In this document: in pieces, positions 17,129 through 18,691 of the stretch | Position numbering within the stretch: position 1 is the first letter of the stretch | Layout of the letters: every line of letters begins with the position of its first letter | Virus genome (UHGV): UHGV-0069400 | DNA from: a virus | Direction: 5' to 3' (one strand) | DNA: 25,507 nt | Made by a program: the position numbers and the translations under genes | The notes under the pieces: generated by a model | Databases searched by the model: none | What the model saw: only the letters and a program-made list of their open reading frames with translations | What the model was told of the DNA's origin: nothing

Positions 17129-17194
17129 ATTGCTCTAATAATTCCATATTTTTAAAACGTGATGTACACTCATCACGTTTTTTATTAGAGCAAT
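17129..17194. promoter_or_regulatory. Two inverted C1-type operator sites flanking a terminator hairpin
   Basis: ATTGCTCTAATAATTCC at 17129-17145 (first 13 nt perfect) begins 2 nt after the stop codon. The inverted site at 17178-17194 has a perfect TTATTAGAGCAAT core. TTGCTC (17130-17135) is a candidate -35. Confidence 0.55.
17157..17183 (+). terminator. Rho-independent terminator (A-run upstream, so possibly bidirectional)
   Basis: Perfect 8-bp stem ACGTGATG/CATCACGT with loop TACACT, followed by TTTTTT and preceded by AAAA. Confidence 0.65.
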
Positions 17195-17208
17195 CTACAA
17201 GGTGCACT

Positions 17209-17427
17209 ATGTGGCCATTCCGACGGAAATATCACTACTGGCTGATCGCCTTTGTTACGCCGACCGGCGGTATCAGGCATGTCATCACCAGGTATCGCAA
17301 CAAGAGACTCACCTTAGCCAGAATTTTACAGGCTGCCATAGGTGAGGGACTGGATACAAATTGCGTAGTCCTTCCTCCTTCATACTTAGGAAAAATGACC
17401 GAAGCACAAGCTAATACGGAACTTTGA
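17209..17427 (+). CDS. Small hypothetical protein (72 aa)
   Basis: GGTG 5 nt upstream of the ATG. Ends 1 nt before the start of the next gene. Confidence 0.4.
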   Translation: MWPFRRKYHYWLIAFVTPTGGIRHVITRYRNKRLTLARILQAAIGEGLDTNCVVLPPSYLGKMTEAQANTEL

Positions 17428-17428
17428 A

Positions 17429-18691
17429 ATGAGCACTTCAGCACAAAACCAATCAATCGAAAATGTATCTATCCCTGACGTCCTGATTGCCGGTATCCCG
17501 GCCATTATCCAGAACATCCGGGCCGCGCAACGCCGCGTTAGTTGTGATGACCTCACAGCGCGTTTTTTTGATAATGCGGTTCAGTCAGCGGAGATGCTTC
17601 ACGCACAGCTTATTGATGTTTATAACGCAGAAGCTGATAGCCATAACTCCCTGGTAGATGCAGCTGAAAATATGCAGTTGGATCTCGGTCTGAAGGGTAA
17701 AGAAATTGAAGAGCTTCAGCTACAAATTGAACATTTGAAACGCCAGCAACAGGACGCGATCGACGATGCGACGCATGACGCCAACCAGCGTGCTGATAAT
17801 GCCGAACGTATAAGCATTGAGCTGGAAACAAAACTCAATGAAATGACCGCGATGGTTGAACTGCGGAACTCACAGATTTCAACGCTAAAATCTCAATATA
17901 AAGAGATCATGAAACTTGATCCTTTTAACCTTGAGAAACGCTATAACAAAGCTAAAAGCGAGCGACAGGAACTGCGTAAGCAGGTCGCCGACCTTAACCA
18001 ACAGCTCAAAAAAACTATTAAAGATGCAAGCGAAGCGCGCGTGGCATTTGCTAATAAAAAAGCAGAGGTTACCGCGCTGGTTAATGAGAATGCCAAATTT
18101 GCGACGCTCAAGAAGGAAATGTATGGCATTACTGAGCGCCGTTTCCCTGCAAGCAAACTTCATCCGACGTTAGGGCAAATCTCCTTCTTCCCGCGCCTCC
18201 TGGCTTATGGGATCTCATCGCCTAAAGAGTTCAATAACGAGCGTCCTTATATCGTTTCTAAGCTGGACTTTGCTTATCAGTTCTGCTGCGACATGGGCTA
18301 TGCCATTGATATCCGAATCAACGAATGGTTGATGCCAAACTTCCAGCCGCTGGCCATTTTCCGCGAGTTCCAGCCGGAAGGTTGGGTAGAGTTCTTCCAT
18401 GAATTGATCTGTAAAGAGATGGAAAGCCGCCGCCCGGAACTGGTCCGCCGTGTCGAGTGGGCGCAAGAGGTTATGTTGGCAGATGCAGAGCTGCCGTTCG
18501 AACCGGAATTTATTGATGATCTGGCAGCTAAAGGGCTGCATACCCTGTTTGATGTGGTTACCCGCCGTCATGAGCAGTTGGTTGTCGAATTGGGTTTAGA
18601 GGAAACAGCGGCAAGAAGACTTCTCGATGTTTGCTATGCACGTAGCGATGCATGGGAAAAAGAGAACGGCGGCACTATTTACGTTCGCTGA
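17429..18691 (+). CDS. Hypothetical coiled-coil protein (420 aa)
   Basis: Long ORF; residues ~90-230 are heptad-like and E/K/Q-rich. The C-terminal half is predicted globular. Confidence 0.5.
   Translation: MSTSAQNQSIENVSIPDVLIAGIPAIIQNIRAAQRRVSCDDLTARFFDNAVQSAEMLHAQLIDVYNAEADSHNSLVDAAENMQLDLGLKGKEIEELQLQIEHLKRQQQDAIDDATHDANQRADNAERISIELETKLNEMTAMVELRNSQISTLKSQYKEIMKLDPFNLEKRYNKAKSERQELRKQVADLNQQLKKTIKDASEARVAFANKKAEVTALVNENAKFATLKKEMYGITERRFPASKLHPTLGQISFFPRLLAYGISSPKEFNNERPYIVSKLDFAYQFCCDMGYAIDIRINEWLMPNFQPLAIFREFQPEGWVEFFHELICKEMESRRPELVRRVEWAQEVMLADAELPFEPEFIDDLAAKGLHTLFDVVTRRHEQLVVELGLEETAARRLLDVCYARSDAWEKENGGTIYVR

Follow-up and report, generated by a model that had tools for sequence, protein, structure and literature searches.

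What kind of operon occupies positions 17,129 to 18,691 of the virus genome UHGV-0069400, analysed here as a stretch of 25,507 nucleotides (nt) that we call the window? A first-pass annotation, made from the sequence alone, had recognized two inverted operator copies around a terminator hairpin, followed by a 72-codon open reading frame (ORF) and a long coiled-coil protein, and had likened the arrangement to a repressor-gated antirepressor or cell-division-inhibitor operon such as immI of phage P1. Comparison with known genomes identifies the locus, with a probability of about 0.9, as the pmgR-pmgS operon of a P1/P7-type phage-plasmid (Punavirus) together with its C1-repressor control region. 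With 2.9 kb around the locus as query, 2901 bases align at 98.5-99.8% nucleotide identity with 19 Punavirus records, including P1, P7, SJ46, RCS47 and Ro157c2YLVW, and the control segment 17090-17230 is 100% identical to both P1 (AF234172, the curated record used as reference) and P7 (AF503408). According to annotation, the gene order pmgQ-pmgR-pmgS-pap is the same in the window, P1 and P7. Both ORFs are present as first described: 72 codons, then 420, with a single base between the stop of one and the start of the other (TGA-A-ATG). PmgR shows no differences from P1 or P7, and PmgS shows three from each. Because the DNA, the operators and the genes all match the P1/P7 annotation, the finding is a rediscovery: the locus is already known, having been annotated in the 2004 P1 genome and genetically re-examined in 2022. 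The window is a P7/Ro157c2YLVW-like variant of the P1/P7 family and has nothing of substance different at this locus. In one record of this group, MH160767.1 / NC_050153.1 (vB_EcoM-Ro157c2YLVW), the feature matching 17209-18691 is annotated as 'L: RNA-directed RNA polymerase L'; this label is probably an annotation artefact, with coiled-coil similarity as its likely source.

The two genes persist as a pair well beyond the close relatives of P1. We compared the locus with divergent P1-like elements whose PmgS is 71, 71, 69, 63, 53, 53 and 27% identical to that of the window; loci obtained from IMG/VR in a search for relatives were all 99-100% identical and of no use for covariation. Every divergent relative encodes a PmgR homologue of 72-75 aa directly 5' of the PmgS homologue (82, 51 and 35% identity in the three that were aligned), and pmgR and pmgS are still neighbours where protein identity has fallen to 27-35%. 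Purifying selection acts on both genes. For pmgS, the ratio of non-synonymous to synonymous substitution rates (dN/dS) is about 0.05 relative to P1, the only comparison quoted, since dS is saturated and the ratio unreliable relative to the 70%-identity relatives; this value indicates purifying selection despite the dispensability of the gene in the laboratory. The 21 most conserved genes of 77 P1-like phage-plasmids include both pmgR and pmgS (PMC9603915).

The control region begins with ATTGCTCTAATAA at 17129-17141 and repeats it as an exact reverse complement at 17182-17194, with identity at 13 of 13 positions. The P1 and P7 records name the repeats 'monovalent C1-controlled operators OpmgRa and OpmgRb', controlling pmgR and pmgS; statements on the function of these sites, formerly Op86, rest on GenBank annotation, and a literature search returned nothing specific on Op86. 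The window contains six matches to the 17-bp consensus of the P1 C1 operator with up to three mismatches, whereas 0.14 are expected, and five matches to the 13-mer operator core with up to one mismatch, whereas 0.03 are expected. The remaining operator matches in the window are known sites as well: an Oban-type bivalent site, O26 and OpmgT. The bivalent site consists of two overlapping inverted matches (0 and 2 mismatches) at 3645-3672, at the end of the dmt gene, and is presumably the operator of the P1 ban operon.

Between the inverted operators stands a hairpin that is as perfect as the first-pass annotation had it: the arms 17154-17164 and 17171-17181 form 11 of 11 pairs around a 6-nt loop (17165-17170). 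The inner hairpin alone folds with -13.4 kcal/mol, and the segment 17120-17200, in which the operator arms stack outside the hairpin, reaches -26.9 kcal/mol (z = -9.4 relative to dinucleotide shuffles). On the + strand the hairpin is followed by TTTTTT at 17178-17183. On the other strand this run is the AAAAAA tail of operator b, and the terminator and the operator, with its A-rich 3' tail, therefore have bases in common. The hairpin is located 26 nt 3' of the stop codon of pmgQ, a gene that ends 1 nt short of operator a and is the final one in the upstream pmgN-ppp-pmgQ operon, itself C1-controlled. Together with its T-run, the hairpin is a probable intrinsic terminator of this upstream operon, placed within the promoter region of pmgR. 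The terminator had been called bidirectional, which is correct only in a formal sense: the minus-strand version of the hairpin is followed by four U and then an A-run, and, with all neighbouring genes on the + strand, no genes converge there. A simple terminator scan did not call the inter-operator hairpin in the window and, among the relatives, called it in L095 only; the maximal stem absorbing part of the T-run may account for the miss.

Six of the divergent relatives were aligned with the window as seven lineages (alignment A6), leaving the 27%-identity relative L003 outside, and hairpins were folded one sequence at a time, since the hairpin register of L095 differs from that of the alignment. 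A common layout of operator, AT-rich spacer, hairpin, T-run and inverted operator is found in all seven lineages. The centre-to-centre spacing of the operators is an invariant 49 bp by our own count, while the operator cores co-vary among lineages (ATTGTTCTAATAA, ATTACTCTAATAA). The hairpin is retained in every lineage through compensatory changes, with energies of -12 to -19 kcal/mol, and in L095 by means of a re-registered stem. Five lineages have a canonical T-run; in the two that make up the 53%-identity clade it is degenerate (CUUGAUU). In L003 the inverted pair is another one, of 15 bp (AAGATACTAATTTAT), with copies 17 nt apart, and no clear hairpin is found beside this operator-like pair.

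The same alignment bears on the position of the pmgR promoter. As we read the alignment, the divergent relatives have not kept TAAAAC, the -10 element of the annotated PpmgR, whereas the hairpin loop has the form TAnnnT in seven of seven lineages: TACACT in P1, TATTAT or TATCAT elsewhere. A consensus scan calls promoters in L006, L004 and L095, each with the loop hexamer as its -10 and with a -35 of TTTACT or TTGATT placed 16 nt upstream of it. As a -10 candidate, the conserved loop hexamer is preferable to the annotated TAAAAC. Whichever promoter placement is right, the promoter has an operator on either side, and an element of 66 bp would unite a pair of C1 sites, the pmgR promoter and the predicted terminator of the operon upstream. 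In a lysogen, C1 would occupy both operators, on either side of the promoter, and keep the operon off; once C1 is inactivated, early transcription would cover pmgR and pmgS as one unit. Read-through from the pmgN-ppp-pmgQ operon would be stopped by the hairpin and T-run. With a -10 element beside the hairpin or within its loop, transcripts starting at the pmgR promoter would not include the 5' arm of the hairpin and would therefore escape termination. The operon closes as first described, with a strong terminator 3' of pmgS at 18711-18739, where an 11-bp stem with six G-C pairs is followed by seven T.

PmgS (420 aa, 48.3 kDa, isoelectric point (pI) 5.2) belongs to phrog_1660, labelled 'PmgS-like head morphogenesis' in PHROGs, and matches nothing above Pfam thresholds when searched alone. 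An exhaustive hidden Markov model search recovers 121 cluster representatives of its family at E <= 1e-3, mostly 360-470 aa long. Among 40 diverse family members, Pfam detects HHH_5 at the C terminus of 13 and RNA_pol_A_CTD at that of 12. The family profile matches the Rad51 N-terminal domain (NTD; 1.2e-7) and the C-terminal domain of the RNA polymerase (RNAP) alpha subunit (alpha-CTD; 1.4e-6) in the PDB, and the fold of the PmgS C-terminal domain matches the RAD51C NTD. The full-length AlphaFold2 (AF2) model, with a predicted local distance difference test score (pLDDT) of 73.5, contains helices at 15-35, 41-160 and 166-232; the latter two agree with the coiled-coil character noted earlier, and the KLDPF turn between them holds the nearly invariant P165. 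A separate model of residues 228-420, built from a 49-sequence alignment, reaches a pLDDT of 93 and a predicted template modelling score (pTM) of 0.87 and comprises a beta-rich alpha/beta domain, which has no match to known domains, and then a helical domain of the tandem helix-hairpin-helix type, (HhH)2. Profiles and models together place the predicted C-terminal domain in the (HhH)2 class, of the Rad51-NTD/RNAP-αCTD type. A relationship of PmgS to SMC, Rad50, LmuB or JetC was rejected: the matches, found with NCBIfam and PADLOC and of 12-20 bits against curated cutoffs of 300-1000 bits, involve coiled-coil segments only and are compositional, and Pfam detects no ABC-type ATPase head or other ATPase domain in PmgS.

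Homologues of PmgS outside P1-like phages tend to have early genes as neighbours. In Aeromonas prophages and phiARM81mr, which share a lambda-like early layout, the homologue is flanked by genes for a PDDEXK exonuclease, RecT and a phrog_1376 protein and, on the opposite side, by those for Dam, RdgC and an integrase; we read this as a position within an early-left operon. A 58-aa gene 5' of the Aeromonas homologue was considered as a candidate PmgR and is not homologous. Vibrio phage douglas 12A4 encodes a DNA methyltransferase immediately 3' of the homologue, which diverges from a block of Ant, methylase and DnaC genes. On one IMG/VR contig (L100) the homologue has a Sipho_Gp157 gene on its 5' side and a KilA-N gene on its 3' side, and on L103 a C5 methylase is located two genes upstream, with a VRR-NUC nuclease farther up. 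In Aeromonas phage ST4 the homologue follows genes for an 'RE endonuclease', a NUDIX hydrolase and an ADP-ribosyltransferase, and a terminase gene is found about 4 kb downstream, past nine small ORFs. Of the six non-P1 contexts, five are clearly early, with recombination, nuclease or methylase genes around the homologue; the remaining one is that of ST4. All six homologues lie outside head and packaging blocks and are without a PmgR partner.

PmgR (72 aa, 8.3 kDa, pI 10.1) matches phrog_3177 and, at E = 1.3e-5, phrog_7212; it has no match in Pfam or NCBIfam, nor in a PDB profile search with the PmgR alignment. A word-indexed protein search returns only close relatives, with at least 72% identity over most of the protein, whose named hosts are enterobacterial (Escherichia, Salmonella and Cronobacter). 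By tblastn followed by profile comparison, PmgR resembles the N-terminal ~70 residues of gp67 from N4-like Pseudomonas phages: the N terminus of LIT1 gp67 is matched with an hhalign probability of 95%, E = 3.3e-8 and 37% identity. Proteins of the gp67 type probably correspond to phrog_7212. The gene for LIT1 gp67 ends a replication block that encodes an exonuclease, a primase, Sak4, SSB and N4 gp48-like and gp46-like proteins.

Genetic data are available for both genes. An in-frame ΔpmgR mutant of P1 yields <10^2 plaque-forming units (PFU)/ml, and its lysates hold tails and incomplete heads (Gonzales et al. 2022, PMC9024508), a phenotype like that of the pacA control; complementation in trans brings plaques back and raises lysogen formation 180-fold. 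The published genetics assign PmgR a part in finishing virions: infectious particles, with complete heads joined to tails, require it. The same study reports no HHpred match for PmgR and did not detect it in the virion proteome. In-frame ΔpmgS gives infectious virions with a normal restriction phenotype and is dispensable for plaques, and PmgS is not named in the main text that carries the virion proteome table (PMC9024508). A CRISPR interference (CRISPRi) screen scored both genes as non-essential and listed pmgR as a known essential gene that it had missed (PMC10695390).

How much of the first interpretation survives, and whether the hairpin acts as a terminator, can be weighed together. The part of the earlier proposal that holds is repressor gating, through the C1 operators Op86a/b upstream of the genes. 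The further proposal would make the operon an immI-like module, in which a repressor gates an Icd-like inhibitor and an Ant-like antirepressor, perhaps with an antisense RNA; a small ORF paired with a large one does recall icd (73 aa) and ant1 (347 aa). The proteins, however, bear no likeness to these: BLASTP gives E = 0.84 for PmgR and P1 Icd and E = 15 for PmgS and Ant1, the 40-sequence family profile of PmgS reaches an hhalign probability of 0.7% with Ant1, and PmgS has no ANT, KilA-N or Bro-type Pfam domain. Rfam includes the C4 family, and no Rfam family, C4-type RNA among them, matches 16900-18900 even at E <= 1, in agreement with the first-pass annotation, which had itself identified no antisense-RNA element. 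Only 14 nt separate operator b from the pmgR ATG, and this leader therefore has no room for an antisense-RNA target. The true immI of P1 (Oc4, c4 RNA with a/b target sites, icd and ant1/ant2) is located elsewhere in the P1 genome, and deletion of pmgR causes a morphogenesis defect while deletion of pmgS leaves plaques normal (PMC9024508). The likeness in layout to icd and ant1 is real but superficial, and an immI-like function is highly improbable. As to the hairpin, the inter-operator palindrome might be mainly an element of promoter/operator architecture instead of a terminator, whether by supplying the loop -10, as a site for a dimeric co-regulator, or as a spacer that fixes the C1-C1 geometry. 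This possibility would explain the loop hexamer shared by all seven lineages and used in the three promoter calls, the invariant operator spacing, and the operator pair of L003 that has no clear hairpin; the degenerate U-run of the 53%-identity clade also implies that termination may not be the conserved function of the hairpin. On the other side, the bases of the stem vary while pairing persists, the re-registered stem of L095 included, a pattern more readily explained by selection for secondary structure, in RNA or DNA, than by a protein site with sequence specificity; the stem runs directly into a canonical U-run in five lineages, and a position 26 nt past the pmgQ stop is where a terminator is expected. 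A mainly architectural role is possible but on balance unlikely, and we keep the intrinsic terminator within the promoter region as the probable reading. Apart from the degenerate T-run, what counts against our account of the control region concerns the promoter: the consensus scan calls none at 17129-17200, the equivalent of the loop -10 promoter in the window scores 7/12 only, and both placements are putative, being consensus-based and weak in P1 itself.

The names of the two proteins pose a further alternative, that PmgR and PmgS are structural or assembly components of the virion. They are labelled 'putative morphogenetic function' in P1, 'sheath structure/contraction' in P7 and 'PmgS-like head morphogenesis' in PHROGs, and both genes lie within the genome segment labelled pmg by Lobocka et al. 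The tails and incomplete heads of the ΔpmgR mutant, complemented in trans, would fit such a role, and the small size of PmgR could explain why mass spectrometry missed it; the authors of the knockout study themselves consider that PmgR could be a low-copy virion protein (PMC9024508). This alternative is nevertheless improbable. PmgR was not detected in the virion proteome and ΔpmgS plates normally; PmgS bears an (HhH)2 domain, and its homologues occupy early regions of unrelated temperate phages, next to recombination, nuclease or methylase genes, with the ST4 homologue following nuclease, NUDIX and ADP-ribosyltransferase genes even though a terminase lies downstream. The PmgR-like domain is found beside replication genes in N4-like podoviruses, which have no sheath, and the operon is C1-controlled, with no late promoter annotated for it. 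Since none of the six non-P1 homologues of PmgS belongs to a head or packaging block, the 'head morphogenesis' label of PmgS appears to be a propagated form of the 2004 placeholder 'putative morphogenetic function'. For PmgR, the podovirus domain, early C1 control, non-detection in virions and the pacA-like phenotype suggest, with low confidence, a non-structural role: a small basic non-virion factor needed for head filling or completion. Our joint proposal for the two proteins is tentative and is held at less than even odds. PmgS would be an early, accessory, non-virion protein whose long helical arm bears an unmatched globular alpha/beta domain and an acidic (HhH)2 domain, and which acts on DNA or on host or phage factors bound to DNA or RNAP, not in capsid assembly; PmgR would be a packaging or head-completion factor common with N4-like podoviruses, not a part of head or sheath. 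Besides the possible low-copy presence of PmgR in virions, two points tell against the proposal. The HhH domain of P1-type PmgS is acidic (pI 4.6) and reads LGLEE, with E391 in place of the second hairpin glycine (G in 75% of the family, whose hairpin consensus is KGxG); direct DNA binding is therefore doubtful, and a protein-binding role is at least as likely. Methylases are frequent in early phage regions, so their association with PmgS homologues may be incidental. If the proposal is correct, PmgS could serve, for example, in recombination- or methylation-linked genome processing, in host takeover or in counter-defence.

As a discovery the locus matters little, being a known operon found again; its by-products are modestly useful. 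The widely propagated 'PmgS-like head morphogenesis' label turns out to have no experimental or contextual support. PmgS gains a concrete predicted domain architecture and a high-confidence model of its C-terminal half, and PmgR, an essential orphan, is linked to a domain of N4-like phages. The candidate -10 in the hairpin loop offers a testable alternative promoter for a control region of 66 bp in which two operators, a promoter and a terminator overlap. The features of the locus and its immediate neighbours are collected in Table 1.

Table 1. Features of the pmgR-pmgS locus and its flanks, in window coordinates, with the basis for each assignment
Feature	Position	Strand	Basis
pmgQ (P7 hdmD)	16426..17127	+	P1/P7 annotation; phrog_1962 'glycosyltransferase', E 2.5e-128
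C1 operator OpmgRa (former Op86a), ATTGCTCTAATAATTCC	17129..17145	+	protein_bind feature in P1 and P7; consensus scan
Predicted sigma-70 promoter PpmgR, -35 TTGCTC, -10 TAAAAC	17130..17158	+	P1 annotation only
Perfect 11-bp hairpin and T-run	17154..17183	+	Folding; kept in all 7 aligned P1-like lineages
Alternative -10 candidate TACACT in hairpin loop	17165..17170	+	Inferred from TAnnnT conservation
C1 operator OpmgRb (former Op86b), ATTGCTCTAATAAAAAA	17178..17194	-	P1/P7 annotation; consensus scan
Shine-Dalgarno-like AAGGTG, 4 nt 5' of pmgR ATG	17199..17204	+	Direct sequence reading
pmgR (P7 shtA), 72 aa	17209..17427	+	Identity to P1/P7; phrog_3177
pmgS (P7 shtB), 420 aa	17429..18691	+	3 aa differences from P1; phrog_1660
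Intrinsic terminator closing the pmgRS operon	18711..18746	+	Terminator scan; folding
pap, HAD-type polynucleotide 3'-phosphatase homologue	18764..19270	+	Pfam HAD_PNKP, E 5.2e-12; annotation
Next C1 operator OpmgT (former Op88), beginning at last base of pap	19270..19286	+	Annotation; consensus scan

Several further observations concern the surroundings of the operon. In the divergent relatives L003 (1-3040) and L006 (1-244), a giant DarB-like protein of about 2250 aa, with N6 methylase and helicase domains, is encoded a few genes ahead of the block that runs from pmgL to pmgS, in the place that tail genes 26/25 occupy in P1 and in the window. The dmt DNA-methyltransferase ORF of the window (367-3654, +) encodes 1095 aa, with a C5-methylase part that is preceded and interrupted by Hint_2 (aa 77-126) and LAGLIDADG_3 (aa 298-362) and with a D12 N6-adenine methylase after it; by its domains the insert looks like an intein with a homing endonuclease. 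The inserted segment, ~1.1 kb long, is present in P1 OP279344, Ro157c2YLVW and RCS47 and absent from P1 AF234172, P7 and SJ46. Three tRNA genes at 4330-4483 and 5915-5990 (+), for Asn-GTT, Thr-TGT and a tRNA with a CAT anticodon, are what we take to be the known P1 tRNAs. Downstream of OpmgT, the region 19465-25507 differs from reference P1, which has pmgT-U-V there, and P1 coverage ends near 20.1 kb; the region encodes a PAPS-reductase-like protein (20197-21075), an Ead/Ea22-like protein (22136-22891) and a DUF551 protein (23105-24295).

Among known systems, the P1 immI region (Oc4/Op51) resembles the locus in that it is likewise controlled by a C1 operator and has an ORF of ~73 aa closely before one of several hundred aa. 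C1-operator control is common to many P1 operons, however, and not specific to immI; immI has one operator where the pmgR locus has an inverted pair, and it has C4 RNA with target sites where the pmgR locus has no Rfam match. The proteins of the two regions are not homologous and their phenotypes differ. LIT1 gp67 (ORF67) and its relatives in Litunavirus have the motif SYLGxMTExEA in common with PmgR, but gp67 is a podovirus gene product of 134 aa with an extra C-terminal half. The predicted (HhH)2 domain of PmgS has its relatives in the N-terminal domains of Rad51, RadA and RAD51C, the C-terminal domain of RNAP alpha and the acidic repeats of NusA. The phrog_1660 members of phiARM81mr and related prophages, douglas 12A4 and ST4 have the same three-part architecture as PmgS, match phrog_1660 at E 1e-120 to 1e-60 and differ from the P1 situation in their early neighbours and in standing without a PmgR partner. 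The nearest counterpart is the same locus itself, pmgR-pmgS in P1 and shtA-shtB with Op(sht a/b) in P7, where the control region and PmgR are identical to those of the window and PmgS differs at 3 of 420 residues.

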